Source: an uncultured Desulfobacter sp.
GTDB taxonomy: Bacteria > Desulfobacterota > Desulfobacteria > Desulfobacterales > Desulfobacteraceae
Assembly: GCA_963665095.1 (NCBI GenBank)
Contig: OY762069.1
Location: 4,256,001 to 4,320,000 of the forward strand
Length of the DNA stretch: 64,000 bases
Direction: 5' to 3'
Below the pieces are notes generated by a model. It saw only the letters and a list, made by a program, of their open reading frames with translations, searched no databases and was not told the DNA's origin. Below are positions 45,901-64,000 of the stretch, one piece after another; position 1 is the first letter of the stretch, and every line of letters begins with the position of its first letter. The translations under genes and the position numbers were made by a program.

Positions 45901-45929
45901 ACGATATACAATCCCGGATAAGATGTCAA
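45901..45929 (-). promoter_or_regulatory. Sigma70 promoter of vapBC
   Basis: TTGACA-N17-TATCGT on the minus strand. Confidence 0.6.
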
Positions 45930-46203
45930 GAAGCATATGTTCAAACTCAAAATTCCCGGGGCTGGTAATAAGGCCCGGGGCTGGGTCCAAAATGGCCTTT
46001 CCTGGTATCAGGGTCAAGCATTTTCCACCCCGGCATCCCTGTGGCAGGCATCTGCTATATGCCTGCTCTATACACGAACTAATGGACATGACCCTGTTTT
46101 TCATTGATCATGTTATGAATATCAGGCGGTCGTGGCAAAACACGCCGCTATGCCGAGGCCCACAAGGGCCATGCCTTTATGATGAATTTAATACATCCGG
46201 TCA

Positions 46204-46232
46204 TTGTCTTTACAAGATCTTGTTAGTATAAT
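46204..46232 (+). promoter_or_regulatory. Sigma70 promoter upstream of the AAA-nuclease pseudogene
   Basis: TTGTCT-N17-TATAAT with palindrome ACAAGATCTTGT in the spacer. Confidence 0.6.
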
Positions 46233-46280
46233 CATTTTTAATTTCGGCCTGTTGACAAAAAGTATACATTGAAAAAACAT

Positions 46281-47649
46281 ATGAAAAAGCGGCCCATCGG
46301 GATACAGACATTCTCCAATATCATAGAAAACAACTATTGCTACGTGGACAAAAAACACCCTGTCATCCACATTGATCTGGCTGAAAGTGTAATAAAATCG
46401 CCGGACCGGCTGGAGCAAAGACTTCATCGTATTCTTGCCATGCGGGCGGAACAAGCGGGCATCACCCTGACCTGTTCCCATGTGGATGACTGCCTTGAAG
46501 AGCTGATCCAAAAGCTTCACGCCGGGAAAAACACCGGGTGGTTGTTCTGGTAGATGAGTACGACAAACCCATATTAGACAATATTACCGATACAAAAACA
46601 GCAATGGAGCTCAGGGATGGACTGCGCAACTTTTATTCCGTCCTCAAGGCCCAGGGTGCCCATCTGCGATTTGTCATGCTCACCGGTGTATCAAAATTCT
46701 CAAAAGTTTCCCTTTTTTCCGGACTGAACAATCTACAGGATATCTCACTGGACAAACGGTACGGAACCCTGTGCGGTTATACACAAGAAGAACTGGAATC
46801 CGTATTCTCTGAATTCTTAACCGATGTTGACCTGAATCAGCTTAAATCATGGTACAATGGCTATTCGTTTCTTTCCGAACCCGTTTACAACCCTTTTGGC
46901 ATTCTGCTTTACCTGGACACCAGGCTGTATAAACCCTACTGGTTTGAAACAGGAACGCCCAGCTTCCTGATCCGCCTGCTGACAGAAAAAAGATGTTTAT
47001 TCCAAGCCTGGAGAACCTGGTTGCCGGAGAAGAACTCTTAGGCAGCTTTGACATCGACTTCATAGAGCCGGAAACCCTGCTTTTTCAAACCGGATATCTG
47101 ACAATAAAAGAAAAAAAGTACCTCTTTGACCAGGAATACGTTTATCTCTTAGGCTTTCCCAATCATGAGGTCAAGAAAAGCCTGACCGGATCTATTCTGC
47201 ACCTGCTCATTAATGATATCCGCCCTGTAAAAACCGGACAGACAACCCTGCTGAACATTTTAAAATCAGGCCACCTGGATAAACTGAAAGACCTGTTCCA
47301 TTCTTTTTTTGCCGCCATCCCCCATGACTGGTACCACAAAAACGATATGGCCGGATACGAAGGGTACTATTGTTCCATTGTTTACTGCTACTTCACGGCG
47401 TTAGGCCTGAATGTGAGAGCAGAAGAACCAACCAACCACGGCCGGCTGGACATGGCGGTCCTTTTTAATGGAAATACATACATCTTTGAATTCAAGGTAA
47501 ACGAACTGACAGCCCCCTCCCGGGCGATTGCCAAGATCAAAGAAAAAAAATACCATGAAAAATACACTGGCAGGGAAACCTATCTGATCGGCGTAGAATT
47601 CAGTAAACAGGACCGCAACATTACCCGGTTTGAATGGAAAAAATGTTAA
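46281..47649 (+). pseudogene. AAA-ATPase-like / PD-(D/E)XK nuclease gene, split into three frames
   Basis: PIGIQTF..YVDK; VVLVDEYDKP, LTGVSKF, YWFETGTP; LLFQTGYLT, GRLD..IFEFK; two frameshifts; Walker A segment absent. Confidence 0.88.
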
Positions 47650-47728
47650 AAACAGCCTGGGGCAATTGCGCCGGTGCTTTCTGATAATTGCTGAAGCGCT
47701 GTTTCCAGCGGATGTCATTTTCTTTCAT
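47650..47728 (-). pseudogene. N-terminal remnant of a second HEPN (HI0074-like) gene
   Basis: Manual translation MKENDIRWKQRFSNYQKAPAQLPQAV; truncated where it meets the end of the AAA gene. Confidence 0.6.
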
Positions 47729-47752
47729 TCAGAATGCCTGATTGCTTAAAGG

Positions 47753-48148
47753 CTATAACTGCCGGCTTGCTGTGAGTTGGCAAAAAACCTGTTTAATTTC
47801 GGGCAAATATATAGGGCATCGCCGGTAGATCTCAATAGACTGATCCTCATTGTACGTATGGGACAGCAAGTTTCTGGCCTTTATCATTTCAAGAAACGGC
47901 CCTTCGTTCTCAATAAGTTCAAGTGCAAACGCTTCCTTGAACACCTGTCGCGGGGAAACTGCCCGGATGCCGTGGATATCTTCCAGATAATTTTTTAAAG
48001 TTTTCCACATCAGTTCATAAGTGAATTCAAACCGTTGTATGGTTGCATCTCTGACAATCGAAGACTCCGGCTCCTGAAGCGCCTCCGAAAAACGCTGTAT
48101 TGCCTTTTCAAAATTGTCGATATTTCTATCCAGCTTATCAGCAGCCAT
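47753..48148 (-). CDS. HEPN toxin (HepT / HI0074 family)
   Basis: RDATIQRFEFTYELMWK, SPRQVFKEA, RNLLSHTY (Rx4HxY). Confidence 0.92.
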   Translation of the reverse strand: MAADKLDRNIDNFEKAIQRFSEALQEPESSIVRDATIQRFEFTYELMWKTLKNYLEDIHGIRAVSPRQVFKEAFALELIENEGPFLEMIKARNLLSHTYNEDQSIEIYRRCPIYLPEIKQVFCQLTASRQL

Positions 48149-48443
48149 GTTTGAGGTCCTGTATATGTTTCATTGCGACTGCCTTGAATTCTTCATCCAC
48201 CGAACTGAAATCAATAAAATCAATTTTCAATAGTGTGGGCAACGCTTCTATTTTTTCCTGAATCGCCAGCAAACAACCTGCGGGCATCTTTTTTTCTGAA
48301 ATGATACCGATATCAATATCCGATTTTGGGTCATGGACACCTGCAGCACGGGATCCAAACAGAAACAGCCTGTATTTTCCCTTGATTTCCCCGGCAACTA
48401 TTTCTGATACCTGCACAAGAATATCATCAACATCCATAGGCAA
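48138..48443 (-). CDS. Minimal nucleotidyltransferase antitoxin (MntA-like)
   Basis: LFGSRAAG...SDIDIG (GSx10DxD); overlaps the HEPN start. Confidence 0.9.
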   Translation of the reverse strand: MPMDVDDILVQVSEIVAGEIKGKYRLFLFGSRAAGVHDPKSDIDIGIISEKKMPAGCLLAIQEKIEALPTLLKIDFIDFSSVDEEFKAVAMKHIQDLKHGC

Positions 48444-48600: not shown

Positions 48601-50586
48601 CTAATGAACCCGGCCCTGTTTTTCATTGATCATTTTCTGAATATCAGGCAACCGGGCAAAACACGCCTCCATGCCACGGCGCATGAGCGCAATACCTTCA
48701 TGAAAGTCATCCCAGGCAAACGTGCTAACGTCCGGATAGAGTACAAGGTCTGCGTTTTTGACATAATCCCCTGTTGCACGGCCGTGGACAATACTGATGG
48801 TCCGGGAGATAATCTCTTTAATACCCGGGTCTTTATTTTGTGACCCGGCACCTGATGCCTCTGATTCAATGCTTACAGCGATAACCATGTCTGCGCCTTT
48901 TCTGATCAGCACATCCACCGGAACCGGGTTCAGGAGCCCTCCGTCCACCATCCAGCGGCCCTGGTGTTTGAAGGGATAAAACACGGCCGGGATGGCGATG
49001 CTGGAGCGAACGGCATCGGTAACATCGCCGGTCTCAAAAATCACTTCCTCTTCATTCAGGATGTCTACGCCCACCAGGTAGGTTGGAATCATAAGATCCA
49101 GGAAATCTGCACTATTTACAGCGTTTCTTACCAGTTGGGCCGCTTTTTTTCCCTTAAGCAGCCCTTGTTTTGGAAGGGTATAATCAAAAATTTTTCTGCG
49201 GGTGTCTGACCGAGTTTGAAACAGGTCGATGGTAGACTGCTTCAATTTCTCCACCGAGGCTGTGGCGGCATAAATCCCGCCCACCAGCGCCCCCATGCTG
49301 GTTCCGGCGATCATGTCGATGTGAATACCGGCCTCCTCCAGAACTTTCAGAACACCAATGTGGGCCCATCCCCTTGCAGCCCCGGCCCCCAGAGCAAGCC
49401 CCAGCCGGATGCCTGCGATTTCCCGGGCCACGGCCCTGGGGCCCTTTACCGGAAAACATTTATGGGTATCAATGCGGTCATTAAACGCCGGCTCGGAACG
49501 GTCCACCCAGATGCCGGGCGTTTCAGAAAGCCCCAGGCGCTGCGCAAGTTCCTGCCGTGCCACCCCTTTTTCCCCGTACAGATGGCTGACCCCGACACGG
49601 ATGCGCCCTAAAAACGCACTGCTCCCGCAAATCTGCTCAAGTTCCTGAAGCCTGGACCTGACCCCTGCGATCTTCTCTTCGGTATTATGAACGAGTAAAA
49701 ATGTCCGGTCACACAGCCGGACAAACAACCGCTCCATATCATTGAGGCAGTGGGTCAGATTGAAAAACACCACATCATAAGACTCTTTCAGGCCTGCCAT
49801 CAACGCCGGCATAATCTCAGACAACCTGTCGGAAAACCCACTCTTCAGCTGCAGCACATGAAACCCTGATCCATGCGCATACCAGTGGATATCCTCAGGC
49901 TTATAACTGCCCTCGGGCAGCACCCTGAAAAGCCCCGGGTCCGGACACCCCATCCGGGCCAGCTCATACTTGTGCATAATCCGTTCCGCTTCAAGATGAG
50001 GCTCAATCACCACCACCCGTTTCTGCGATTCATCAGAGATATGAAAGGAAACAGAATAAAGAAAATGAGACACTCCCAGCTCAGGCCCGGTGGCAGAAAC
50101 CGCATAAAAAACCGGTACCATTGCCCTGCGCCCCACACCACCCGCCTCCGTGGCCATACGCTTGGCATAATACCGGCTTAGATACAACCCAATACTTTTA
50201 TTCTTCTTAAGCAGAACCTCGAAATTCTCCCGGGTCAGGCAAAACAAAACCACATCCAGCGACGCCGTCACCGTCGCCTGCCGCTCCCCCCGGGAAAGCA
50301 ACGCCAGCTCCCCGAAAAAATCCCCCCGCTTCAACTCCTGAACAAAAAACTCCCTCCCGTCAACCTCCTTGAACACCGACACAGCACCCGACCGGATCAC
50401 ATACATGGAATCACCAGCCACGCCCTGCCGGCAAATCACGTCGCCTTTACTATAAACCACCTTGCTGAACAGCCCGGAAAGATCCCGGATCTGCTCTGCC
50501 GGCACCGACGAAAACAGCGGCACGCGCGACAGGAAATCATAGAGATCGTGTACTTTTGCTTTCATAGTAATGATTCTTTTGGGCAA
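48601..50586 (-). CDS. cNMP-binding + patatin phospholipase protein
   Basis: GDFFGELALL..RQATV; GAGAARG, GTSMG, DGG; start may be ATG 50565. Confidence 0.9.
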   Translation of the reverse strand: MPKRIITMKAKVHDLYDFLSRVPLFSSVPAEQIRDLSGLFSKVVYSKGDVICRQGVAGDSMYVIRSGAVSVFKEVDGREFFVQELKRGDFFGELALLSRGERQATVTASLDVVLFCLTRENFEVLLKKNKSIGLYLSRYYAKRMATEAGGVGRRAMVPVFYAVSATGPELGVSHFLYSVSFHISDESQKRVVVIEPHLEAERIMHKYELARMGCPDPGLFRVLPEGSYKPEDIHWYAHGSGFHVLQLKSGFSDRLSEIMPALMAGLKESYDVVFFNLTHCLNDMERLFVRLCDRTFLLVHNTEEKIAGVRSRLQELEQICGSSAFLGRIRVGVSHLYGEKGVARQELAQRLGLSETPGIWVDRSEPAFNDRIDTHKCFPVKGPRAVAREIAGIRLGLALGAGAARGWAHIGVLKVLEEAGIHIDMIAGTSMGALVGGIYAATASVEKLKQSTIDLFQTRSDTRRKIFDYTLPKQGLLKGKKAAQLVRNAVNSADFLDLMIPTYLVGVDILNEEEVIFETGDVTDAVRSSIAIPAVFYPFKHQGRWMVDGGLLNPVPVDVLIRKGADMVIAVSIESEASGAGSQNKDPGIKEIISRTISIVHGRATGDYVKNADLVLYPDVSTFAWDDFHEGIALMRRGMEACFARLPDIQKMINEKQGRVH

Positions 50587-50613: not shown

Positions 50614-52623
50614 TTAGTTTATGCATTCAAGAGAATACTTTTTTAAGGACAAAATTCTTCGAATGATATCCTCTCTAAACTGGACAGCAAAAGCCCCTAA
50701 ATCTGATAAATCCATTCTTGCTCCAAAGCTGTCATAGATTTTTATTGATGTAACCGGGCGATGCCAGTCTTTCCACTTCTTATGGTTCTGCACATAACCA
50801 CCACGAACATAAAGCCTATTGCGAAAAACTTCCTGAACGTCTTTCAGCCATTTTTTCTGTTCTTTAACCTGATAGTTAGTTTTTGTTGATCGTAATAAAT
50901 AATCAAGTAATTTTTCAAAAGTCTTGATATACCTTGCATCATCTACTGCTTCTCTAAACCCTTTATGCACTAAAGTGCTCAGCGGCCCTTCATCACCTTC
51001 TCTCTGGGCCCGGGCAATTGTTATTGCATTCCCGGAAAAGGTCTGAGGGGAAAAAATATCATCTTTTGCTCTGTCTGTATGTTTCCAGATTGCCCAGTAA
51101 AAAGTGCCTTTTGCTTCATAAACCCAGGGAATAATCCCCACTGCAAAACGGGGTTTTCCTGGAGACGCATAGAAACTGAGGCCTCCGTTATATGTAAAAA
51201 GACTGCGACCAGCTTTTTTGCAGGCTTCATACTTTTCCGGTGACGGGCAGTTAGTACTCCAGACATGATGGTGGTGGGACAATTTCTTCTCATCTTCTTT
51301 ATGGTAGAACACACCAAAAGTCATCAACTCCGGTGTATTTCTCTCCACCATGGGAAAAACTTTATTATACCATTCAAGCCGTTCCGGCTTCGGCTTGTGG
51401 TCAGGCTCATCCAGAATTGCTGCCGGGATATCTCCATGCCCGCAAGCACTCATCTGGCTATAAAACTGCTTTAATGTCTGAGTTAAATAATCCTCAAAAG
51501 GAGGTGATAAATCCGTAGCTGCATATTGTGTGCGATACTTTACCTTTCTGCCATTGGTAATTACCGGCCGATTCAACAGCATAAACAACTGGTTTATAAC
51601 CTTTGGACTGTCACCCCCTAGAAATACAGTATGAGGGCCATGAAACCCCAGTTTATCAAGCATTTTAAGATAATCAACATAAGGAGAAAAATCCGCTGAT
51701 ACTTTATTATTCTCAATGCTTATCCGATTGGATGAAGTGGACCACCAGGATACCTGGGTGTGACCGTGTTCCAGAAGGTTCATGGCCTCTTTTTCATCCA
51801 CAAACGAAGAGATGTAGGCACCTCTGGCCCAGTCTAAAGCCAAGTCCAGTTCAAACGGCAGCACTGTCAACTCTATTGGGATTTCAGAAAGCAAGTCGTC
51901 CTGTTGTTTTATGATTAAATTCCCTGAATAAATGCCAGCTGCCGCAGTTTTCGGAATAAAAATATCCAGCCAGACAGCCTGACAGGTTTGCCTCCGGATA
52001 TCTATTTGGGCAAGATCAAGCAACGCCACCGGTTCCTCTTCGTACCTGAAAGGGAGATATGTTTGCTTTTGAGAAGGATCAATATCCATGTCAGCTGACA
52101 CTTGAGTCGACTGCTTTTTCCTGGTCAGGACATTGTAAACAAAATACGTTCTAATATCCGCCCCATTACTTTTTATTACAACTTTTGCATCTTTATGGAC
52201 AAGATCCGTAAGCTGAACTGAGACCCCTTTAAGCTCCGTTGAAGACCATATGCCGATCTGAGCAGACTCCCATTCATTTTTTGCCCCTTTGATTTTCAAC
52301 ACATCAAGTCTGGCTTTTTTATTTCCTGGCGGTGTAAATTTTCTGACTTTTTTAAGGATTCCGGCATTGAAAATATGCAGTGCCGGCCAGACACCTGAAC
52401 GGTCTTTCGGTTGCAGATCCGGTCTTCCAGGAAGTTCAACTCCTTGCGCCTTCAACGCCAAAACGGCCTGTTCATGACGAGTCAACGCCTCAATGGAAGC
52501 CTTTCTTTCCCACACCAGATTAAAATTGAGTTGAACCTCTGCGGCAAATACCTGCACTGAAAACAAAATAAAAAAGGGGTATAAAAAAAACCCCTTTTTT
52601 ACTGCAGCCCAATTATTTCTCAT
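50614..52623 (-). CDS. Secreted GH123/DUF4091-like putative glycoside hydrolase
   Basis: Signal peptide (..VQVFA-AE), GAKNEWESAQI, WLDIFIP...GIYSG, DEP, REAVDDARY. Confidence 0.6.
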   Translation of the reverse strand: MRNNWAAVKKGFFLYPFFILFSVQVFAAEVQLNFNLVWERKASIEALTRHEQAVLALKAQGVELPGRPDLQPKDRSGVWPALHIFNAGILKKVRKFTPPGNKKARLDVLKIKGAKNEWESAQIGIWSSTELKGVSVQLTDLVHKDAKVVIKSNGADIRTYFVYNVLTRKKQSTQVSADMDIDPSQKQTYLPFRYEEEPVALLDLAQIDIRRQTCQAVWLDIFIPKTAAAGIYSGNLIIKQQDDLLSEIPIELTVLPFELDLALDWARGAYISSFVDEKEAMNLLEHGHTQVSWWSTSSNRISIENNKVSADFSPYVDYLKMLDKLGFHGPHTVFLGGDSPKVINQLFMLLNRPVITNGRKVKYRTQYAATDLSPPFEDYLTQTLKQFYSQMSACGHGDIPAAILDEPDHKPKPERLEWYNKVFPMVERNTPELMTFGVFYHKEDEKKLSHHHHVWSTNCPSPEKYEACKKAGRSLFTYNGGLSFYASPGKPRFAVGIIPWVYEAKGTFYWAIWKHTDRAKDDIFSPQTFSGNAITIARAQREGDEGPLSTLVHKGFREAVDDARYIKTFEKLLDYLLRSTKTNYQVKEQKKWLKDVQEVFRNRLYVRGGYVQNHKKWKDWHRPVTSIKIYDSFGARMDLSDLGAFAVQFREDIIRRILSLKKYSLECIN

Positions 52624-52671
52624 TGATAAACCTCATATAAGCTGTCTCAAAATACAAATTTTGAAATAGTT

Positions 52672-55600
52672 CTATTGCACGCCGCCTTCCGGGCGATCAA
52701 TATCAGAATCCCCCTTGGTAATAAGCCAGTGGTCCGCTTGAAAAATATCTGCATGAACACTCTCATCAACACCTCCGGGATGGACCAAAAAAAACCGCTC
52801 AGGCTCACGCCTGATAAACCCGAAATATTTAAGGGCAGCTTCAAGTTTTTTATTGATGACTTCAAAGGTAATGGTGTCAAATCCCAATTTATCGCACTCT
52901 TTTCGGATCACCTCAAAAATACTTAATAAAAGTTTCTGATCGGATATTGGGCAGACCAGGTCAACCACAAACGCCCGCCTGTATTTATAAGGAGTGTGGG
53001 CTCCCGGTTCCCTGAACATGAGCACAGCAACTGCCACAATCTTATCATCTTTTATCATTTCAATCCGCTTGAAAGACTGGCCAGGCTGATCCGCATATTT
53101 CCAGTTAAGGTAGGACGCATCCCGAACCACAGCGTATTTATAATCATGACACACCTGGTCCCATAGTTGATCATGCTGGTCAGAAAACCGTTCAACTTCA
53201 CGGACGTCAAGATCAAGCAGGTTTGCCCGAGCCTTTAAATTCTTCTTATATGTCAGCATTTGCAGCCCCGCGCCAACGGCACCCGCCATCAAGGCATTCA
53301 TTTTCCCTTTCAACATATTACCCGGACGCAGAGGGTAGACATATATCTGGAGGGGAGCCACCTGCTGCCACCCCAGACTGAAGAGAATGGCACGCATCTC
53401 CTTTGTCTGGCCCAGTGACAGGCTAAAGGGCATATCCTGCCGGGTTTTCATCATAATAACAGGACCAAGACCTTTGTCCCGGCATGATTTTAAAACCATT
53501 GTATCAACACACCAGGCAGTTGGAACAATCGCACCATCCAGCCAGGCGTTAACAGGAATTGCGCCGGTGTAGGCAATGACATTGCCCGCCTCTATATAAT
53601 TCCACATCACAGGCTCAAGACCTAACCGGTCTGCAGATTCAAGATACATCCAGCGCCACCTGGGTTCCAATAAATCCTGGTCTCTATTGGGCCACGCTTT
53701 GGCAAAGAACTCCAGGATCTGTGGCTCCATTGAAGCGCTGTAGCCAACAATTCTATTTTCAATACTTTTTTGCCCGGTTAAACCCTTTTCTTGGGATACA
53801 GCCTCTGACATGCTGGTCAACAACCAGTCGGCAAGGGCAGTGATATTGGGATAATCATGGATAATCACAATATCCATCAGTCCGAATTTCTTTTTGATAC
53901 TTACAGATAATTCAGCGGCAATCAAAGAGTCCACCCCGATTTCAGTGAAATCGCCCTCTATGGAGAGATCATGACCGGTTTCATAGCCAAGCAGATGCCC
54001 GACCTCATCTGAAAGAAGTTGAATTAAAACACCCTTTCTTTTCTGGGGCTCTGTGTCCAGAAGGATCTTGCCCCATTTCGACAGCGTCCCAGTTTTAGCC
54101 GAACTCTCAGTGTCTGATCCAGGGCGACACAACGAAATCAAGGGCCTAACACGCCGGGCCTCATAAATCCCTGAAAAAATACCCCAGTCAATATCCGCAA
54201 CCACCATACCGCTTTTGTCAGCTTCAAGCAGGGTTTGAAATACTTTTATGGCGGCGTCCGGGTCAAGGGCATAGTTGCCGATCCTGGCATAGCCGGAAAT
54301 ATCTTCACTGCTTGCCATACCCCCCTGATCCCACGGGCCCCAGTTAATGCTGATACCAGGCAGCCCTTTTTTCCGCCTGAAACCAATAACCGAGTCAACA
54401 AAAGCATTGGCAGCGCTATAATGCGCCCTACTTTCCGACCCGAGTACGGAAGATATGGATGAAAAACAGACAAAGGCATCCAGGTCAAAATCACAAGCGT
54501 ACTGATGGAGCAGCCAGGTACCTTCGACCTTTGGGGTCAAAACCAGACCCAGGTCTTCAGGGCTCATGTCATCTACAGCTTTAGGAATATCAATCCCAGC
54601 CAAATGAAAAATGCCTTTCAAAGGGATTTGATCTGATGCAAGGCTTTCAAAAAACGGGGAAACTTCACTTTCCTCACCGATATCAAGGGCCACAACCTTA
54701 AGTGCGGCACCGGCCTTTTTCACAGAGGCGATAAAACCTGTCGCATCTTTGCTTTCCATTCCTTTACGGCTCGTTGTAATGATCTGCGTTGCCCCACATG
54801 ACGCCAGCCAGAGGATCACTCTGCGGCCCAGTGCGCCCAGTCCGCCTGTCACCAGGTACACCCCCTGGTCTGAAATATTCACCTTTCGGTCTGAAAGGAC
54901 TTTTTCCCTTATCAGCCGGGGCACCAGGCGTCCGGATCTATCCAGGCGAACCTGATCTTCATTGTCAGGAAAGGTTAATTCCCTGCCAAGCGCCCTGATC
55001 CCGGAATCAATGTCAAATCCGGAAGCCAGTTCAATCAGCCCGCCCCATATGCCAGGATGCTCCAGGGCAACCCCCCGGCCAAAACCCCACATAAGGGACT
55101 GAAGGGCTGCCATCTCTGTTTGCTGAGTAACAACCCATAGTTTGGGCTTTGACATATTTTCCAGAGAATGGATGGTGCGGGATAGTAATAAAAGCCGGCT
55201 CAAATATTGTTCTTCAAAGAACCGGATATCGGAAGCGCTTATATCTGCTTTATCGCACCCCTTCATTCCCCATAAAAACGCAATGCCGCTGACAGGGCCA
55301 TGGGACTTGGCGACCTCATTAAAAAGCTGAATAAAACCGTCCTGAACATCCGGTTTTATAACAAAAAGATCAGATGACGCTTTGTTGTAGCCTTTGCCAG
55401 GAATAACCTTAAAGGCACAGTGGCCTTTTTCTTTCAACTCTTTAACCAGCGCATTTCCTGTATCCTCATTGTCGGACAGAACCAGCCAGACTCCGGGCTT
55501 GTCAGAAGAGGAAAGGCTGTTTGTCTTATAAGCGCTTTCAATCCATTTAACTTTATACAGGCTGTCGGACAAATCACTCTTTCCGGCATGGCTGGCAACT

Positions 55601-58600
55601 GACTGGAATTTTGTTTTCAGCCAATAATGACCATGATGGAACTGATAACCGGGGAGATCAGCCTTATTACGATCTTCCGGATTGTAAAGCCCGGACCAGG
55701 TAAAATCAGCGCCCATGGTAAACAGGCGGGACAGGCTGCCATACATGGTCTGCCAGGCAGGCTTATTTTTTCTTAGGGAAGGCAGCCAGGCCATGTTATC
55801 AGAGGCCAGGCAAAGACTACCCATGCCAAGGAGAATTGGGTGGGGGCCGATTTCAATAAAGGTTGACACCTCTTTTTCATCCAGGGTGGCCATGGCATCC
55901 AGGAAACGAACCGCCTGTCTGACCTGGGCCTGCCAGTATTCCGGGCCAATTTTATCAATTTCCAGCATATTGCCGTCAACGCAGCTTATGACCGGAAACT
56001 GCGGTGGATTTAATTCAATGTCCGCCACAACCTTCATGTACGCTTCCAGCATCGGCTCAACCTGCGGGGAGTGGAATGCATGGGATACATTAAGGTATTT
56101 AAAGTCGATATTATCCTTTTCCAGGTCTGCAACGATTTGGTCCAGGGCATGGGCGGCCCCGGATAATACAACCTGATCAGGTCCGTTGACTGATGCAATG
56201 GAAATCTGATCTTCCTGGGCATTTATCAATGCAATGGCAGACGCTTCATCCATCCGGACAGCCGCCATCTTACCTCCGGAAGGTAAGGCCTGCATCAGCT
56301 TTCCCCTGGCATGGATCAACTTTAGCCCGTCGGAAAGGCTTAGTACGCCTGCGACCGTTAACGCAATAATTTCACCGGCGCTGTGACCGGCGGCATAATC
56401 AGGCCTGATCCCCCAGGACAGCCAGAGCTGGCTTAACGCGTACTCGATACAGAACAAGCAAAGCTGAGTATACAATGTCTGGTCAATACGGGCGGTATCC
56501 TGGCCTGCTTCATCCGGGTAAATTACCTGCATTAGCGGGCAGTCAGTCCATTCATCCAGAACAGTGACGCATTCATCCATGGCAGCCTTGAAAACAGGGC
56601 TGGTCTCATATAACTCACGGCCCATGGATACATATTGTGACCCCTGGCCTGTAAACAGGAAGGCAATCCTGCCTTTGTTTTTTCCAAAATCAGATTTACC
56701 AACCGTACACCCTGCCGGATATTCCCCTTTGGAGAACTGCTCGATACTGTTTGTCAGGGCCTCAAGATCCGGAGAGATAAACGCAACCCTGTTTCCAAAA
56801 TGACGGCGCTTAACACCTGCTGTAAAACATACATCCGCAATATCAAGGCAGGGTCTGCTTTTCAGGTAACCGGAAGTCTCTTCGGCAATCTTCATCAAAG
56901 AGGCATTGGTATCTGCAGACAGCGGGAAAAGATGCAGCGTCGGGACGGGCCCGATTTTCAGGGCAGATGCTGTCTCGTCTTTCACGCACGTTCTGCCGGG
57001 CTCTTCAAGAATCATATGCACGTTGGCCCCGCCAACACCAAAAGAACTGACACCTGCACGCCTGGGTACTTCCTGTTCCTGTCCGTCAATTGTAAAAACA
57101 GGTTTTTCCCATTCTGAAATATCACGCTGAACGTTAAAAGGGATGTCTTTAAAAGGAATTTTTGAATTTAGTTTGCCCGATGTAATACTGGGTAAAAGGC
57201 ACTTTTTTTCAAACTGCAAAAGCACCTTGATCAGACTTAACACAGCGGCTCCGGATTCCAGATGGCCGATATTGGGTTTGATTGACCCTATTGAGCAGGC
57301 ATGTCCGCATTGAATGGCATTATCCCACAGGCTCTTATTTGTGTAGGCAAGGGTCAGGCCCCTTACCTCTATAGGATCCCCTAAAGAAGTTCCTGTGCCA
57401 TGGGTCTCCACATATGATACGGTTCTTGGGTCTATACCGGCATCCCGAATACATTTGCTTATGGCCAGGGCCTGGGCACCAGGGTTGGGGGCAGTGAACC
57501 CGATGCTTCCGGTGCCGGAACTCAAGGCTGTTCCCTTTATGATGCCGTAGACATGATCCCGGTCTTTCCGGGCATCTGCCAGAGGTTTTAAAATAACAAC
57601 GCCTGCGCCCTCACCTAAAAGGACGCCATTGGAATCATCGCAGAAGGGCCGGCATCTTCCCGTGGGAGAAAGAATGCCAAGGCGTTTTAGCTGCCCAAAG
57701 CGGTTGGGGTCCAAAATCAGGTTCACACCGCCGGCAACGGCCATGCGGCACTCTTTTGCCCTTAGCGCCATGCAGGCCACGTGAACCGCTGTTCCGGAAG
57801 AGGAGCATGCCGTATCAACTGTAAAACTTGGCCCCCGAAAGCCCATAAAATGGCTCAACCTGTTGGCGATACTGAATGTTTCCCAGCTTCTGTAAAGGCT
57901 TTTGCTCTCATTGGCGGCCTGGTTGGCTCGAAATGAATAGTCACTATACATGGCACCCATATAGACGCCTGTATCTTCGGTAAAGCTTTCACCTGTATAA
58001 CCGGCATCTTCCAGGGCTTTCCAGGATGTTTCAAGAACCAACCGGGTCTGGGGGTCTGTCAGGGCAGCCTCCCTTGGCGATATTTTGAAAAACTCGGCAT
58101 CAAAACCGTCAACATCATCCATTAACCCTGCCCAGTGCTCCAGATCCCCTTCAAAGGGCTCCAGAAAAAACGGGCGGTCCGGTGTTATTTTCCGAATGGA
58201 GGAGCCTTGCCCGGAAAGAAGATTCCATAACGCCTCTTTAGTTTGTCCCCCGGAACAGGAAACGCCAATGCCGATCACTGCAATATCGTGCAAAGAAGAG
58301 GCCTCCCTCTTATCCGGAAAATCAAAAACAGGCTCATGACCGGTCTGTGCCTCGCCTTCTTTACATATTGCCTCAACAATATCTGAAACACTTCGGTGTT
58401 CAAAAAGCAGGGTGATTGGCAGCCAGGAAAATTTTTCAAAAAGCGCCACAGTAATTTCAACAATTTTAAATGAGTCACACCCCAGTTCTTCAAGGAGGTC
58501 CCCTTTTTTGACATCTGCCACCGGTATTTTCAATTCCCGGGAGAAGATGTTGTAAACCAGGTTGGACAAGCTTTCTTTATCAAGGGGTGCTAAGATTTTT

Positions 58601-60456
58601 CCGGATTCAGCTTCTTTTCCGGTCTCTCCACCTTCAACCAGTTCCGATAATGACTTCATATCGGAAAGTTCAAATGCAGCACGCTTAATCTGGGCTTCCC
58701 GGTTCCGGATGGTCTCATTCTTAAATTCGTCTGGCTTTTCATCGGTTTTGGTAACCGGTTTTTCCTCTGTCTCCTCTTTGGAAGAATGAACCAGTTCAAT
58801 CTCCATCAATTCCAGAGTAGGGATAATAGAACAGATATGACCGTCCTGCTCAACTTTGCAATACTCTTGCGGCGATGCAGATTTCAGGAACTCCCGTGCC
58901 GGGGTATTTCGCGGCGTGGGGAACACTTCCATCCGGACAGAATCAATCTTATTTTTGTCGGCAAACCGCCCCAATTCATTGAGCATGTAGTGCTCTACCC
59001 CGCGACCCAAAACCCTGCAACTGAGCAGAAAGGTATCCACGATCAGCTCCTGCCCCCGGATCTCCCCAATATAAAACCCCACAAGCCCGTAATCACCAAA
59101 ACGGTCAGAAACCCGGACTGTCTGCATGATAAAGTTATCATCAGACATCAGGGCTTTAAGCTCGCCCTCTTTTCTTCGCCGGGTGGTAAAATTAAACTGG
59201 TTGGTGCGCATGGTGAGCTGGGAGGCCCTTGGCAGGTCTTCGTCGTTAAGATCGCGCAGGTCGGTTTTTAGTTCAAGGCTTTTTAAAAAATCGCCAAAAT
59301 CAACCTTATCCTCCATGAACTCCTGGCGCTTGAGCTCTTCCTTGTACATCTGGGTTCTTTTCTGGTCGACTGCCGTGCCTTTTTTGATATCAAGCTCCCA
59401 GATATGGCATAACAGGGTATATGCCCTGTCCGGCTCCTGCGGCCATTGTATTGTCAAAACATCTGGGCAGCCGGCCTGAACCTCCGCGCACTCCACAGGG
59501 TTGTCATCAATAAAGATAAAATTGGCCAGTCCCAGATTTAATTGTGATGCCAGTTTTTTGATATTTTTCGATTTGGGCTGCCAGTTGATCATGGCAGAGA
59601 CGATGTTATCCCGGCTGAGTTTAAAGTCTTTCCGGTTATCAAATACGCTCCATACATCAAATTCTTCATTTTTGCTGCAAAGGCTGACCACCACCCCGCC
59701 CCTACTCAACTCCATGAGCTTTTCCTGTAGTGCGGTATGGGATTTTTCAAATACCACACCATCAACGCCCACCTCACCTACAACGCCTTTCCACAAGGTG
59801 TTGTCACAGTCCACCACAACCACTTTACAAATGGGCACCATTTTCCGGTAGATATTGCGCATGACCAGGGTAGCCAGGTAGTAAAAATAGGACTTCTGAT
59901 AGGGGATATGCCCTATTTTTTCCCGAAGCGGGTCATGGACCTGGTCTTCCTGTATTGAATAGGCATTATGAAAATCCGAGGCGTTAAGAATGGTTAAACC
60001 TGGGACACCTTCAAGAGCAGAAGTCAGCAACGCTTCGGTTTGAGCCAGAATACCCGGGTCGGAAAATAGGTCGTCTCCTCTTTGGACTGCAGGACAAAGC
60101 ACCAGCATGGTTTCAACTTTGCAGTGTCCCCGGTGGGTTTTCATGGCCCGGATGAATTCCCGGGCTGAATCCTCCAAAAATTTTTCAACACTCTTATCAG
60201 ACTGAATTTTAGAATTGTCAATTTCCCTGAGCCAGTCTTTTACAATCAAATAAACAACACTGACCCCATTCTGATTTGAGGATAACCCGGAGCCGGGATT
60301 AATCAGTTCCTGAAGGATCTGGTTATAAGGAGAAAGCACAATATCCGCATTAAGGCCTAACTCTTCACACCAGAATAAAAATCCAGGGGTGGCAGAGTTT
60401 ACCGTAAAATTAGCACAAATCTGTACATTTAAATCTGTTGAAGCATCTTTTTTCAT
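52672..60456 (-). CDS. Type I PKS: FkbH-like loading domain-ACP-KS-AT-KR-ACP-GNAT
   Basis: DCDNTLW, FIDDNPVE, LSCRVLGR; LGCDSF; DTACSSS/HGTGT/NIGH; GHSAG/HAFH; GGLGALG/YSAAN; IGVDSL; C-terminal VDTMVLKSCRDKGLG; no TE motif. Confidence 0.92.
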   Translation of the reverse strand: MKKDASTDLNVQICANFTVNSATPGFLFWCEELGLNADIVLSPYNQILQELINPGSGLSSNQNGVSVVYLIVKDWLREIDNSKIQSDKSVEKFLEDSAREFIRAMKTHRGHCKVETMLVLCPAVQRGDDLFSDPGILAQTEALLTSALEGVPGLTILNASDFHNAYSIQEDQVHDPLREKIGHIPYQKSYFYYLATLVMRNIYRKMVPICKVVVVDCDNTLWKGVVGEVGVDGVVFEKSHTALQEKLMELSRGGVVVSLCSKNEEFDVWSVFDNRKDFKLSRDNIVSAMINWQPKSKNIKKLASQLNLGLANFIFIDDNPVECAEVQAGCPDVLTIQWPQEPDRAYTLLCHIWELDIKKGTAVDQKRTQMYKEELKRQEFMEDKVDFGDFLKSLELKTDLRDLNDEDLPRASQLTMRTNQFNFTTRRRKEGELKALMSDDNFIMQTVRVSDRFGDYGLVGFYIGEIRGQELIVDTFLLSCRVLGRGVEHYMLNELGRFADKNKIDSVRMEVFPTPRNTPAREFLKSASPQEYCKVEQDGHICSIIPTLELMEIELVHSSKEETEEKPVTKTDEKPDEFKNETIRNREAQIKRAAFELSDMKSLSELVEGGETGKEAESGKILAPLDKESLSNLVYNIFSRELKIPVADVKKGDLLEELGCDSFKIVEITVALFEKFSWLPITLLFEHRSVSDIVEAICKEGEAQTGHEPVFDFPDKREASSLHDIAVIGIGVSCSGGQTKEALWNLLSGQGSSIRKITPDRPFFLEPFEGDLEHWAGLMDDVDGFDAEFFKISPREAALTDPQTRLVLETSWKALEDAGYTGESFTEDTGVYMGAMYSDYSFRANQAANESKSLYRSWETFSIANRLSHFMGFRGPSFTVDTACSSSGTAVHVACMALRAKECRMAVAGGVNLILDPNRFGQLKRLGILSPTGRCRPFCDDSNGVLLGEGAGVVILKPLADARKDRDHVYGIIKGTALSSGTGSIGFTAPNPGAQALAISKCIRDAGIDPRTVSYVETHGTGTSLGDPIEVRGLTLAYTNKSLWDNAIQCGHACSIGSIKPNIGHLESGAAVLSLIKVLLQFEKKCLLPSITSGKLNSKIPFKDIPFNVQRDISEWEKPVFTIDGQEQEVPRRAGVSSFGVGGANVHMILEEPGRTCVKDETASALKIGPVPTLHLFPLSADTNASLMKIAEETSGYLKSRPCLDIADVCFTAGVKRRHFGNRVAFISPDLEALTNSIEQFSKGEYPAGCTVGKSDFGKNKGRIAFLFTGQGSQYVSMGRELYETSPVFKAAMDECVTVLDEWTDCPLMQVIYPDEAGQDTARIDQTLYTQLCLFCIEYALSQLWLSWGIRPDYAAGHSAGEIIALTVAGVLSLSDGLKLIHARGKLMQALPSGGKMAAVRMDEASAIALINAQEDQISIASVNGPDQVVLSGAAHALDQIVADLEKDNIDFKYLNVSHAFHSPQVEPMLEAYMKVVADIELNPPQFPVISCVDGNMLEIDKIGPEYWQAQVRQAVRFLDAMATLDEKEVSTFIEIGPHPILLGMGSLCLASDNMAWLPSLRKNKPAWQTMYGSLSRLFTMGADFTWSGLYNPEDRNKADLPGYQFHHGHYWLKTKFQSVASHAGKSDLSDSLYKVKWIESAYKTNSLSSSDKPGVWLVLSDNEDTGNALVKELKEKGHCAFKVIPGKGYNKASSDLFVIKPDVQDGFIQLFNEVAKSHGPVSGIAFLWGMKGCDKADISASDIRFFEEQYLSRLLLLSRTIHSLENMSKPKLWVVTQQTEMAALQSLMWGFGRGVALEHPGIWGGLIELASGFDIDSGIRALGRELTFPDNEDQVRLDRSGRLVPRLIREKVLSDRKVNISDQGVYLVTGGLGALGRRVILWLASCGATQIITTSRKGMESKDATGFIASVKKAGAALKVVALDIGEESEVSPFFESLASDQIPLKGIFHLAGIDIPKAVDDMSPEDLGLVLTPKVEGTWLLHQYACDFDLDAFVCFSSISSVLGSESRAHYSAANAFVDSVIGFRRKKGLPGISINWGPWDQGGMASSEDISGYARIGNYALDPDAAIKVFQTLLEADKSGMVVADIDWGIFSGIYEARRVRPLISLCRPGSDTESSAKTGTLSKWGKILLDTEPQKRKGVLIQLLSDEVGHLLGYETGHDLSIEGDFTEIGVDSLIAAELSVSIKKKFGLMDIVIIHDYPNITALADWLLTSMSEAVSQEKGLTGQKSIENRIVGYSASMEPQILEFFAKAWPNRDQDLLEPRWRWMYLESADRLGLEPVMWNYIEAGNVIAYTGAIPVNAWLDGAIVPTAWCVDTMVLKSCRDKGLGPVIMMKTRQDMPFSLSLGQTKEMRAILFSLGWQQVAPLQIYVYPLRPGNMLKGKMNALMAGAVGAGLQMLTYKKNLKARANLLDLDVREVERFSDQHDQLWDQVCHDYKYAVVRDASYLNWKYADQPGQSFKRIEMIKDDKIVAVAVLMFREPGAHTPYKYRRAFVVDLVCPISDQKLLLSIFEVIRKECDKLGFDTITFEVINKKLEAALKYFGFIRREPERFFLVHPGGVDESVHADIFQADHWLITKGDSDIDRPEGGVQ

Positions 60457-60577
60457 TCTCTGTCCTTCACAGAAGCCTTCTATTTGATATCCCAGAGCAG
60501 AAAATCAAATGAATAGGTTTAAGCTTAATCAAATCATGAAACTTTATTGTGTTTAAATTGTTTGATTATTATTTTTT

Positions 60578-61945
60578 CTATCGTTCAAAAGCCCCAATAG
60601 TAGAAGGCTTTTTTCTAAGACTACCGCTTTTATCCTTCACGACCATGCCGGTGGGTTCATACCATGTATCGACAAACCCCGGAGTCTGAATTGCAGGGCA
60701 GCTTTCAACGGGTTTTAAATTTTTATCAACTTCCGTACGGTCTATGATCATGTTATTGGCAGCACCAAGCTTTTCAGACTGTGAAATTTCCGGCAGTTTT
60801 AAAGACCCGATCCAAAGGTTATTCATATTCAGCCAGCCGGAGTGATCCCACTTAAAGTAAGATTTGCTCCATATTTTTCTGTCAGGAGCCCAGTTAATGT
60901 CTTTTTTGTTCCCAACCATTGTACAAAAAGCCATTCTGAAATTTCGCAGTTTATCCTCTATGCGAAGCCCTGTATTGTTATCTCTTATAATGCTGTTAAT
61001 AATAATGGGATTCATCTGCATGCCTTTGGAAAAACCCCGCAATCTTACTCCAATATCAGAATCATACACCTCGCAGGAGTCAACTACTGCCTCAACACCT
61101 TCTTTTAAGTTTAGTGCCGCAGTATTGTTGATCAGCTTTGTCCGGAATCCATGAATTCGGCAGTTTACCAAAGCAATGGTTCCCCTGCTTTTCGAGACGT
61201 GTTTTGTATCAATGGCATTTTCTGAGACATAGATGCCCTTTTTATATCCCCCCATATCTTCCTCTAAAGGAGAATCCCATAAATGGGAATTAATAACCCG
61301 AAAGTTGTTCCAGCGTCCGCGGTCCACCTGGATAGCATCACCAGAGCACTGCCTTATGTCAACACGGTCAATCACTATATCTTTACCATGCTTGGTTACA
61401 ATCCCATGGGCATCAATACGCTCTCCTTCTTTATTTTGTCTTAGGATCTTGTGAATCACTGTATTTCTGACAATTGTACGGGCGCCATCTATATCAACCG
61501 CATGCTTTGTTAATCTGGTGAATTCGCAATTTTCTATTAAGAGATCATTGGCGCCCTCTTCTGGATGATCATCATCAATAGACCCTCTTAACCCCCTGAT
61601 ATTCTCCACAAACTGGCCGTCAAAAATAATACCTTTAATACTGACACCTGCTTCACGAATATGAATCATGGGGCTGCCTGATTTAATTTTCTTGGAAGCC
61701 ACAATTCTGACTTTTCCCGAATTTTTTGCATGAATGGAAACGCCGGCACTTTCAACGTAGATAGTTCTGGAAAGAATGTAGACCCCATCATTAATTATAA
61801 TCTCAGTGCCTTTCCATGCTTTTTTGCATTTAGCCGCCAGGTCATCGCCAGGATTCACCTCAATCTTTTTTGTGAAAAATGAAAAGCCTGAAAATAAAAT
61901 AAAAGAGACAAGACAGATCGTTATAATTGTTGTTTTTTTTACCAT
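60578..61945 (-). CDS. Exported right-handed beta-helix (pectin lyase-like fold) protein
   Basis: N-terminal signal/anchor, VNPGDDL..GVY start, repeated IENCEF/IDRVDI/VDSCEV strands, C-terminal IGAFE. Confidence 0.75.
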   Translation of the reverse strand: MVKKTTIITICLVSFILFSGFSFFTKKIEVNPGDDLAAKCKKAWKGTEIIINDGVYILSRTIYVESAGVSIHAKNSGKVRIVASKKIKSGSPMIHIREAGVSIKGIIFDGQFVENIRGLRGSIDDDHPEEGANDLLIENCEFTRLTKHAVDIDGARTIVRNTVIHKILRQNKEGERIDAHGIVTKHGKDIVIDRVDIRQCSGDAIQVDRGRWNNFRVINSHLWDSPLEEDMGGYKKGIYVSENAIDTKHVSKSRGTIALVNCRIHGFRTKLINNTAALNLKEGVEAVVDSCEVYDSDIGVRLRGFSKGMQMNPIIINSIIRDNNTGLRIEDKLRNFRMAFCTMVGNKKDINWAPDRKIWSKSYFKWDHSGWLNMNNLWIGSLKLPEISQSEKLGAANNMIIDRTEVDKNLKPVESCPAIQTPGFVDTWYEPTGMVVKDKSGSLRKKPSTIGAFER

Positions 61946-61965
61946 TCCTCCCCCCCCTGATTTTA

Positions 61966-64000
61966 TTATTGTTTCCCTACTTTAACCTTCAGGCTATCGT
62001 CCTGAAAAATGGCAAAGGTTGTGTTATTGATATGCACAGAACCTGATTTTTCCAGAATATCCCAGATGACATTCGGGGGGGGGCTGTCAGTAAATGGTAT
62101 CATGATGAATGCAAGTGCGCTTTGCACAGCAACAGTTTCCCACCCAACTTTCAATGACGATGCCTTTGTCCGATATCCATACCCCTTGCAGACCCAGCCT
62201 GCCGGGATTGAATCGCTGCAGAAAACCTGATCAATTCTTACAGGAGTTAAAAACTTGATCAATAAAGAGATGTTTCCATTTTTAGCCAGGAGCTCGCATT
62301 TGTCGTCATTTTTGTCAAGTTCAACATCAGGATGAAAGTTAAAGTAATTTGTAATGCTGCATTTTTCAGGAGAATTAACGATATCATTTATAATCCAGAA
62401 TTGCTTCTTTTGATAAAAGACCTCTCTTACCGAACTTGTGACCGATGAAAATTCAATTTTCCCGGAACATGAGGTAAAAGAAGGCTCATCCTGCCAGGAG
62501 ACGAGTTTAGGAGAGACCACTTTCTGCCACTTCAGACAGTCAACGTATTCCGCCTGCCTCAATCCATGAATAACAAAGGTATTATGCGCTTCTTCCTTTC
62601 TAAAATATTCGTGCCATTTACGGTCTCCAAAATATGTATAAAATCCGCCATCCACCAGAAAAGGCTTTCCATACACACAAAGATCAACGGCAAGGGCATC
62701 TGCATGCCCATGGGCTGCAGAGGGTATTGATTTATGACTTAGCCCGTGGGCAATCATACCGAAATCAAAGCACAAAAAGTTAGAAGACCTTTCCCAGGAA
62801 TCTTTGATGATCCCGTACCCGCTTTCCCTGAAAACCTTATTAACCGCGGGAAGGTCTCTTTCCTCCATTGATAAGTAGTCATTAATATCCTCGTCCCCCA
62901 AAAGCCATAAAAGCTCCTCTGCAATTCCGGTGCGCGGCTGCTTAAAGTCCCGACTGTTAAACAGCACTACAGCAATATCCTGGTAAAAAGTGAAATCCCA
63001 GGAATGTCTGGTGTTAAAATATATTGAGCGGGCATTATCGATATCCCCTTTCATGGGCAGGGTTTTATCCGGCATGTGAAGATATCTTGATATGTCAATC
63101 GCGGCCTGGATTCTTTCCATTACATGATCTGACACACTCTGATTGTTCAGGCGTTTCAACAGTATACAGGATATATAGAAACCCAACGTAAAATGATGAT
63201 AAAAGCTGGCCTGCTCAACAGTCATGCCGTCGCTGCAGAATTGCCGGTCAATTGTCTCCTCCAGAATAGACCAGCCTGTTTTTTTCCATTTTTGGGCCTC
63301 CTTCAGTTCAGGAAACTGTGATCCCACTAGAAAAAGAGCGGCGGCCTCTCCGATCAAATGGTTGTATGGGCTTGAATAATGGGATAAATGGCTGGACGTA
63401 TAATAAGCCTGTTCAAACACAGACTGCCTGATTTTAAGTATGTTTTTCTTATATCCGGAAGCGTTGCGGCACAGATTTAAGGACCATGTCCAGCTGAAAA
63501 GCCTTACAGCATGCTCAAGGGAACTGGTCCAGTTCACCCCTTTGTTGTAGGGATTGGCATCTATCCAGTCGCAGAGAACGGAAAAAACCTTTTCGGCATA
63601 AACCTCATTGCCCGTAAGAAAGTAAGCCTTGGCCAGAGGGATAAGATACTGGTGGCGGTTCACCTCCCATACAAACTTGACATCCCGGTTTTTCATTGAT
63701 GTATGGGAAAGGACATCTGCGTAAAACACTCCAGGCCATGAATCACCGCTTTCAGGATCAAGGTGCCACCCTTCTCCTTTAGGAAAGAAGACCTTCATCC
63801 CTAAAAGAGTGAGGTCTCCTTTCAGCACCTGGTCGGCTTCCTTAATAATATTGTCTTTAAAACCATATTGATGCAACAGGCTGATGCGCTTATCATAGTC
63901 GCAATCTGACAAAAAAAAGCGATCTGCATTGGCTAAATGGCTAAAGGCAGTATCGAGGAGAGGCTTTTTAGCACGAGAGAAATCGTATCGTTCCTTGACT
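61966..64000 (-). CDS. Heparinase II/III-like protein, 5' end outside window
   Basis: WEVNRHQ, NPYNKGVNW, NHLIGE, EQASFYH, HGHADAL, HNT; frame stays open from 63912 to the window edge. Confidence 0.88.
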   Translation of the reverse strand, partial: VKERYDFSRAKKPLLDTAFSHLANADRFFLSDCDYDKRISLLHQYGFKDNIIKEADQVLKGDLTLLGMKVFFPKGEGWHLDPESGDSWPGVFYADVLSHTSMKNRDVKFVWEVNRHQYLIPLAKAYFLTGNEVYAEKVFSVLCDWIDANPYNKGVNWTSSLEHAVRLFSWTWSLNLCRNASGYKKNILKIRQSVFEQAYYTSSHLSHYSSPYNHLIGEAAALFLVGSQFPELKEAQKWKKTGWSILEETIDRQFCSDGMTVEQASFYHHFTLGFYISCILLKRLNNQSVSDHVMERIQAAIDISRYLHMPDKTLPMKGDIDNARSIYFNTRHSWDFTFYQDIAVVLFNSRDFKQPRTGIAEELLWLLGDEDINDYLSMEERDLPAVNKVFRESGYGIIKDSWERSSNFLCFDFGMIAHGLSHKSIPSAAHGHADALAVDLCVYGKPFLVDGGFYTYFGDRKWHEYFRKEEAHNTFVIHGLRQAEYVDCLKWQKVVSPKLVSWQDEPSFTSCSGKIEFSSVTSSVREVFYQKKQFWIINDIVNSPEKCSITNYFNFHPDVELDKNDDKCELLAKNGNISLLIKFLTPVRIDQVFCSDSIPAGWVCKGYGYRTKASSLKVGWETVAVQSALAFIMIPFTDSPPPNVIWDILEKSGSVHINNTTFAIFQDDSLKVKVGKQ

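Follow-up and report, generated by a model that had tools for sequence, protein, structure and literature searches.

The stretch of DNA analysed here (the window: 64,000 nucleotides of an uncultured Desulfobacter sp., contig OY762069.1, positions 4,256,001 to 4,320,000) carries on its minus strand, at 52672..60456, a gene for a polyketide synthase (PKS) of 2594 aa, recognized from its open reading frame (ORF) and its Pfam/NCBIfam domain matches. We think it probable that this enzyme builds a short polyhydroxy acid and that its own C-terminal GNAT domain attaches the acid to a surface glycan. The strongest argument for the GNAT as transferase and for a glycan as target is the convergence of two unrelated acyl carrier protein (ACP) routes, the PKS and a Lux-type cassette, on one GNAT family in glycan loci. 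A first-pass annotation of the window had cast the PKS as supplier of an acyl substituent for a capsule, exopolysaccharide (EPS) or O-antigen sugar; the proposal finds support at the genomic level, with acylation as the predicted step, and the cluster is one for EPS, not an O-antigen locus. That annotation overlooked the most informative parts of the protein: the FkbH loading domain at its N-terminus and, at the other end, the tandem GNAT, which supplies the transfer step that the annotation lacked.

From domain order to a proposed product

The chain runs FkbH-ACP-KS-AT-KR-ACP-tandem GNAT (KS, ketosynthase; AT, acyltransferase; KR, ketoreductase) and forms one module; with KS, AT and ACP in a single chain and the catalytic residues intact, it is a cis-AT type I modular PKS. 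All domains lie on the minus strand. The long-form FkbH loading region (aa 1-560; 58777..60456) scores 299 bits against TIGR01686 (cut-off 146.65), is related to PDB 3slr (BF1531, E 1.6e-20) and has the HAD DxDxT motif (D216/D218), the DDNP motif and the C-terminal Cys480, from which a glyceryl-transferase/phosphatase is predicted. There follow ACP1 (Ser662; 58366..58557, PF00550), the KS (Cys884/His1019/His1065 intact; 56992..58287, PF00109 and PF02801) and the AT (55708..56661, PF00698), with GHS at Ser1359 and a HAFH motif that we take to be of the malonyl type. The KR (54328..54864, PF08659) keeps its NADPH motif and Tyr2013; its fingerprints show neither LDD nor W and leave the C3 stereochemistry unreadable from this domain. 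ACP2 (Ser2177; 53821..54009) is the second PF00550 stretch and also matches PF23297.

For release, no thioesterase (TE) or reductase (R) family matched at E<=0.01-0.1, and the next gene is not a further module but GH123-like. Neither a dehydratase (DH) nor an enoylreductase (ER) matched in Pfam, the gap between AT and KR being just 282 aa. The MaoC dehydratase and SDR reductase front carried by many relatives is absent from the protein and from the 121-bp spacer upstream. A split DH-KR gene elsewhere in the genome was considered and dropped: the search gave generic MaoC/SDR matches only, and the spacer holds no remnant.

The C-terminal tandem GNAT (aa 2233-2594, 362 aa; 52675..53760) combines a weak Pfam GNAT score (E 0.008) with a well-predicted structure. 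In an AlphaFold (AF2) model built from 95 sequences (pLDDT 94.9 for the domain) it has a GNAT fold; Foldseek returned N-myristoyltransferases (NMT), a VIA comparison gave Z 22.1 for Eis2 (rmsd 3.7, 304 aligned) and 21.7 for NMT, and the ESM Atlas placed it in GNAT clusters at 0.96-0.98. A C-terminal DSDxD motif, present in all 55 rows of fused forms (100%) and in 96% of the 27 stand-alone ones, sits at the end of the alignment to Eis, which reportedly uses its own C-terminus as base. A sequence search of this domain against the PDB gave nothing significant, its aminoglycoside 2'-N-acetyltransferase matches at E~0.5 being too weak to serve as evidence; nor did FeeM (PF21926) match at E<=0.1, a model that did match the FeeM-like gene of a congener (G125). 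On the modelled fold, we predict that the tandem GNAT is the transfer domain.

FkbH-type enzymes move glycerate from 1,3-bisphosphoglycerate onto an ACP (PMC5819245), and the FkbH region would accordingly load glycerate onto ACP1. KS, AT and KR would carry out one malonate extension with ketoreduction, leaving 3,4,5-trihydroxypentanoyl (2-deoxy-D-pentonoyl) on ACP2, and the tandem GNAT would move this acyl group to an amine of the EPS repeat unit or of a nucleotide-sugar precursor. No signal peptide was seen on the PKS, so that a cytoplasmic acceptor, a nucleotide sugar or lipid-linked repeat, is expected; its amine would most likely come from de-N-acetylation, the locus having two cytoplasmic-type deacetylases and no aminotransferase. 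Deacetylation of a surface sugar followed by acylation through a GNAT-like enzyme has been proposed for VimE/VimA (PMC7468200). The phosphopantetheinyl transferases (PPTases) serving the PKS would be encoded elsewhere in the genome. DH-KR-fronted relatives would start from lactyl and yield 3,4-dihydroxypentanoyl, an FkbH module that yields D-lactate-ACP being known (PMC7901079), and in PKS-free relatives a tetronate-like ACP cassette would feed the same GNAT family. Iteration and O-acylation are possible.

The exopolysaccharide cluster and the PKS family

On the PKS strand the co-oriented cluster extends ~43 kb past the heparinase-like gene at the end of the window, to ~4365500 on the genome contig (G000:C1). 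Past 64000 it holds a sulfotransferase, a bi-domain oxidoreductase, a GT4 glycosyltransferase (GT), an O-antigen-ligase-family protein, a membrane protein, an acyltransferase-3 and an IS21 element (istA/istB and two small ORFs; L001:11131-14193), then a flippase, an IS4 transposase (L001:16111-17483; the two elements span G000:C1:4329131-4335483), GT4s, GT2s, a second sulfotransferase, a second flippase, NDP-sugar dehydrogenases and two deacetylases, and finally a FemAB-like protein, exosortase, EpsI, an export protein, a priming GT, a tyrosine kinase, Wzz, and also a PEP-CTERM protein. The glycan synthesis genes that the first-pass annotation sought beyond 64000 (glycosyltransferases, flippases, a polymerase/ligase) are therefore present; the sugar aminotransferase and the PPTase that it also looked for are not encoded at the locus. 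Two PPTase genes lie elsewhere in the genome, one of them Sfp-like by eye (G000:C1:2553622). Tested for the XrtA/PEP-CTERM EPS components (exosortase, EpsI, XrtA deacetylase, priming GT TIGR03013, PEP-CTERM protein), the cluster gave TIGR02602, TIGR02914, TIGR03006 and TIGR03013 above cut-off together with PF07589; the exosortase A model TIGR03109 reached 200.4 against a cut-off of 208. Its gene content, with wza/wzc/wcaJ-type genes, identifies the locus as a Wzy-dependent XrtA/PEP-CTERM exopolysaccharide cluster, not one for O-antigen. The genome has two further KS-containing clusters (G000:C1:3714285-3725868 and 4138070-4149196), one with its own PPTase and PUFA-synthase-like by eye, the other of type II, with several KSs and a GT2.

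A scan of GTDB for the GNAT found 67 loci: at 35 it is fused to a PKS, 24 have a Lux cassette, and 8 are of other kinds. For the synteny of PKS homologs, the upstream 20 kb was fetched from the 19 of 35 PKS genomes with sufficiently long contigs, and one phmmer query set was run on these and on 31 control stretches of the same genomes (40 picked by hand, less 9 short ones). A GT, flippase, ligase/polymerase, priming GT or exosortase occurred in 18/19 PKS upstreams and 1/31 controls (Fisher p 2e-11, overstated because the genomes are related), two marker classes in 12/19 and 0/31, and a marker other than a GT (wzx/wzy/wcaJ/exosortase) in 14/19 and 0/31. As the first-pass annotation would have it, then, the homologs lie mostly in glycan/exosortase loci. 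With downstream DNA included (~30 kb), markers were found in all 19, a GT in 17, a deacetylase-type gene in 11, exosortase in 8 and a PPTase in 5. In the DNA that the first scan covered, a core glycan gene accompanied the PKS at 22/35 loci, and a core or accessory one at 25/35.

The second donor route is the Lux-type cassette. Fe-ADH, AMP-ligase, LuxE, LuxC and a FabG-like SDR are held by 23/24 LuxE/LuxC loci and an ACP by 22/24, the cassette usually standing directly before a stand-alone GNAT. Core glycan genes occur in 16/24. No PKS was found in any of the 24 loci; PKS and cassette occur together at none of the loci scanned. Two unrelated ACP routes thus converge on one GNAT family in glycan loci, which points to the GNAT as transferase and to the glycan as target. 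A more distant GNAT in Azospirillum, 24% identical, is likewise placed among deacetylase, beta-helix, ligase and flippase genes. A quick IQ-TREE run (LG+G4) on 82 GNAT rows, none shorter than 300 aa, separates the 27 stand-alone rows from the rest by a branch with SH-aLRT 97; in this tree the window protein is nested among DH-KR forms.

Within the genus the PKS belongs to the variable interior of the EPS locus. Among 24 congeners exosortase is found in 20 and a cNMP-patatin gene in 15, one of these matches being weak; 2 congeners have FkbH, and the same 2 have the GH123-like gene, so that these genes travel together in the genus. In the window the patatin gene (48601..50586, minus strand) marks what is in congeners the conserved downstream boundary of the EPS locus. 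One congener (G007) keeps the order sulfotransferase, heparinase-like, PKS, GH123-like and patatin at 59-80% identity and differs in the middle, with no beta-helix gene at the corresponding position. In four others (G100, G121, G125, G136) exosortase and patatin enclose 30-52 kb of other glycan genes and no PKS; the slot of G125 holds an AMP-ligase, reductase and hexapeptide acyltransferase set, and a FeeM-like synthase flanks the locus. Because slot contents differ, we regard the PKS as an optional component of a variable, serotype-like cassette. Among 150 other genomes of the taxonomic family, a close GNAT homolog occurs in 2 only and distant ones in 25 more. One distant tandem GNAT lies in the EPS locus of a congener (G084, L152:9143-11424), beside an aminoglycoside 3-N-acetyltransferase-family gene, a DegT aminotransferase and a flippase.

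When the GNAT was searched among long proteins only, 122 matches resulted, 120 of them listed, the query included; all 119 others listed are PKSs ending in a GNAT domain, spread over Planctomycetota, Acidobacteriota, Nitrospirota and Desulfobacterota. Among these 119, 89 start with MaoC-dehydratase-SDR-FkbH, 9 with FkbH and 3 with partial fronts, and 18 have no complete FkbH, about half being ~1930-aa forms that start at the KS and the remainder fragments. Motifs are retained in 94-98 of the 98 complete forms, and a profile search returned 399 representatives at E<=1e-30 and 4518 at 1e-10. One form with DH-KR (P0004) and one without (L017) are 85-97% identical per domain and 63% identical in the first 200 aa of FkbH, a drop that points to a front-end swap. 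The ~1930-aa KS-AT-KR-ACP-GNAT forms without loading region (P0013, P0015-17, P0026, P0028, P0032, P0044, P0061), seven of which share one branch of the GNAT tree, are possibly second modules making longer chains; P0026 and the FkbH-start P0066, whose longest contigs are equal in length (2370652 bases), may come from one genome.

Several other observations concern particular lineages. Members of a deacetylase-like family (L041:2595-3704, with relatives in 19 of the loci fetched) often stand, in Planctomycetota, immediately upstream of the PKS or of the Lux cassette, as candidate partners that generate the amine; the family has no match in Pfam, and the ESM Atlas assigns it to polysaccharide deacetylase clusters (0.96-0.97). 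Three Planctomycetaceae loci share flanks (DUF1549/1553 protein) around a common slot that holds the PKS in L050 and the Lux cassette in L029 and L037, a direct donor swap, with no glycan gene detected. A plasmid of Aquisphaera giovannonii carries, within an exosortase/EPS cluster, an FkbH-ACP-thioesterase gene (L159:9953-12964; FkbH 44% identical to that of the window), whose KS-free product may deliver plain glycerate. In Acidobacteriota (L010, L011, L023, L032, L044, L063, L065, L069; upstream L083-L100) the PKS adjoins genes for exosortase and for a membrane protein of the sulfatase family, often also one for an Sfp-type PPTase, and many copies from long-read metagenome-assembled genomes are frameshifted. 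In Nitrospirales (L027:3-989, L031:987-2525) a carboxyltransferase gene, a possible dedicated supply of malonyl-CoA, immediately precedes the PKS. Rhodopirellula baltica BR-MGV (L045) is a cultured carrier of the PKS.

Alternative readings and neighbouring genes

A number of points weigh against glycan acylation. The starter, the single extension, the product and the acceptor are all deduced from the genes. The loading cassette is not glycan-specific, because a DH-KR-FkbH cassette also starts the trans-AT PKS of the FR901464 producer; long-form FkbH, starting as it does a Burkholderia trans-AT PKS, was given up as a glycan-locus marker. The closest folds of the GNAT, NMT and Eis, acylate proteins besides amino sugars and share 10-12% identity with it. 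No DegT-type aminotransferase is present at the locus (the genome has 4 DegT-like genes, the cluster 0), and one is near just 2/19 PKSs of the family, unlike in Flavobacterium psychrophilum, whose acceptor is the product of an aminotransferase (PMC6519341). The IS21 and IS4 elements flank the first flippase and, upstream of the PKS, break up the EPS cluster; they could be polar, and G007 has neither at the corresponding places. As to the family, the related genomes are non-independent and the control stretches were hand-chosen; exosortase comes with no GT in ~30 kb in 2/19; 10/35 PKS loci of the first scan, mostly on short contigs, lack a glycan gene in the DNA covered, L050 being a real exception with none within 15 kb, and the Lux-cassette loci L029 and L037 lacked one in that scan too. 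Among 8000 candidates scored, LuxE-LuxC fusions of ~820 aa were found, none named from Vibrio.

It is rather unlikely that the acyl group ends up not on the bulk polysaccharide but on the link used in PEP-CTERM/exosortase sorting, be it a linking sugar, a lipid amine or the sorted protein, even with an exosortase within ~30 kb of 8/19 PKSs (2 of these lacking a GT), protein-acylating NMT and Eis as fold neighbours, and an amino-acid-modified sugar proposed as exosortase conjugate (PMC7468200). The PKS sits in the variable interior, in 2/24 congeners against 20/24 for exosortase. Moreover, exosortase processing is periplasmic, and the PKS, with no signal peptide seen, is cytoplasmic. A diffusible small molecule, such as an N-(trihydroxypentanoyl) amine, a 2-deoxypentonolactone or a hydroxymethyl-tetronic acid, linked to the EPS only genetically, would suit the FkbH/glyceryl-ACP that is standard in tetronate metabolites (PMC5819245). 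It would also suit the colinearity of the DH-KR-FkbH-ACP-KS front with the PKS of the FR901464 producer, and a FeeM-like synthase lies beside the locus in G125. The N-acyl amino acid synthases that are associated with PEP-CTERM systems would be a parallel case (compare Craig et al. 2011). We hold this reading to be unlikely: there is no TE, and no tailoring, transporter or regulator gene of a metabolite cluster nearby; the PKS lies amid glycosyltransferases in 17/19 genomes; and it is mutually exclusive with a cassette whose known counterpart acylates polysaccharide.

Far less credible is an iterating, RkpA/WcbR-like synthesis of a long acyl chain as capsule lipid anchor or carrier. WcbR and RkpA are indeed type I PKS genes in capsule clusters (PMC3908369) and NMT-like folds accept long acyl chains, but the starter would be a polar C3 acid, and no reduced lipid is possible because DH and ER are unmatched and only 282 aa lie between AT and KR. 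Equally improbable is an unrelated passenger in a hypervariable locus, as the GC content of the PKS (0.486, against 0.41-0.43 for its neighbours) and the insertion elements might suggest; this is largely refuted by a common context in four phyla (18/19 against 1/31) and by the order of sulfotransferase, heparinase-like, PKS, GH123-like and patatin genes kept in G007. Attachment of the acid to the exopolysaccharide thus remains our preferred reading. Whether it extends to a widespread, undescribed class of envelope assembly lines, modular type I PKSs ending in a glycan N-acyltransferase, with swappable glyceryl/lactyl loading and an alternative tetronate-like donor, which would write polyhydroxyacyl "serotypes" on the EPS of Planctomycetota, Acidobacteriota, Nitrospirota and sulfate reducers, we consider an evenly balanced question.

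Around the PKS, the first-pass annotation had described co-oriented heparinase II/III-like, beta-helix, PKS and GH123/DUF4091-like genes with gaps of 20-121 bp. ORFs and Pfam bear this out: on the minus strand stand a heparinase II/III-like gene (61966..64000, running on to window-equivalent 64086; full gene 706 aa, Hepar_II_III_N/C), a right-handed beta-helix protein, lyase/hydrolase-like (60578..61945, Beta_helix), the PKS, and a GH123-like protein with an apparent signal peptide (50614..52623, Glyco_hydro_123_N_2), with gaps of 20, 121 and 48 bp. For the last, the only matches are to models of the GH123 N-terminal domain and to GH123 chains in the PDB; the DUF4091 half of the label had no match at E<=0.01, and a single-sequence fold without alignment (pLDDT 32.7) was unusable. 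Most simply, the three neighbours are polymer-processing enzymes. One 97%-identical contig from sequencing runs spans the PKS to the GH123-like gene, and a promoter/terminator scan stayed at shuffle level (26 vs 22.3; 25 vs 19.2).

The AT-richness reported relative to the left of the window is real (GC 0.459 against 0.524 for positions 1-42560) and unremarkable for the genome (mean 0.487), where 15% of stretches of equal size have a GC content no higher; the PKS gene itself sits at the mean. The rmlA,C,D,B genes (39169-42560, passing NCBIfam cut-offs) do lie 8.05 kb away, as claimed; the suggested link to the locus is unsupported, since they are on the opposite strand, with unrelated genes between, and are missing from the 10 kb downstream of the G007 PKS. 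They are probably unrelated to it. Directly before rmlA, at 36304-39078, are LutC/LutB-like lactate utilisation genes, judged by eye. From rmlACDB to the patatin gene (43001-48443) stretches what we take, from labels given by eye, to be an island of small accessory genes, presumably a Uma2-like nuclease, a PIN toxin, a split AAA-ATPase/PD-(D/E)XK pair and a nucleotidyltransferase substrate-binding pair.

Relation to known systems

Hydroxyacylation of surface glycans via ACP is already known (PMC6519341; reviews PMC10609480, PMC3210612). In the available portions of the two reviews neither "trihydroxy" nor a pentanoyl amide appears, and the FkbH-PKS-GNAT architecture is unmentioned in those of the epsSMASH preprint and a Planctomycetota review; nor did the literature searched, in which subscription papers were mostly outside reach, yield a paper on it in a polysaccharide cluster. 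If our reading holds, a PKS family taken in genome mining for secondary-metabolite clusters would move to cell-surface biology, PKSs would gain a new mode of off-loading through a tandem GNAT acting on a glycan, C5 polyhydroxyacyl substituents of a kind unmentioned in the available text of PMC10609480 and PMC3210612 would be predicted, and XrtA/PEP-CTERM exopolysaccharides would gain a specific chemical mark.

The tetronate pathway of Vibrio cholerae O1 (wbeK-O, VC0248-VC0252) likewise N-acylates a surface polysaccharide with a short polyhydroxy acid (PMC3441752). By analogy of gene families and sizes, the Lux cassette with stand-alone GNAT resembles it (ligase 475 aa vs 471 in V. cholerae, Fe-ADH ~380 vs 374, LuxE+LuxC ~820 vs 825). 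V. cholerae differs in its ABC-exported O-antigen, whereas the window system has a type I PKS as donor, a tandem GNAT and a Wzy-dependent EPS as target; WbeO is reportedly a hexapeptide-repeat enzyme. The 3,5-dihydroxyhexanoyl R1 pathway of F. psychrophilum (wfpC-G) also builds an ACP-bound hydroxyacyl group with KS and KR for predicted transfer to an amino sugar, but with dissociated type II enzymes, a PglD-like transferase and a dedicated aminotransferase (PMC6519341). The window system instead has one polypeptide, a glycerate starter and a GNAT, with no aminotransferase at the locus.

Long-form members of our family are colinear with the loading region of the FR901464 producer (MaoC-DH, SDR, FkbH, ACP, KS; 27-51% identity). 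A glycerate starter is named in the title of the FR901464 paper, and the bryostatin trans-AT PKS is said to have a DH-KR-FkbH loading module too. Such trans-AT PKSs consist of several modules without an AT, and their products are diffusible metabolites. The window protein, in contrast, lacks DH-KR, has its AT in cis and is a single module. Eis and NMT share the fold of the tandem GNAT (Z 20-22) at 10-12% identity, with no sequence-level PDB match. In Eis and NMT, as in VimA of Porphyromonas gingivalis, proposed to acylate a de-N-acetylated surface sugar (PMC7468200), there is nothing like the window GNAT's place as terminal domain fused to a PKS. RkpA and WcbR, too, are type I PKSs within capsular polysaccharide clusters (PMC3908369). 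Unlike them, the window PKS has FkbH loading, a terminal GNAT and no DH/ER. Their order is reportedly KS-AT-DH-ER-KR-ACP, fully reducing. PKSs in capsule clusters and ACP-made glycan acyl groups are thus known; the window protein differs from them in its architecture, predicted starter, polypeptide format and predicted transferase.

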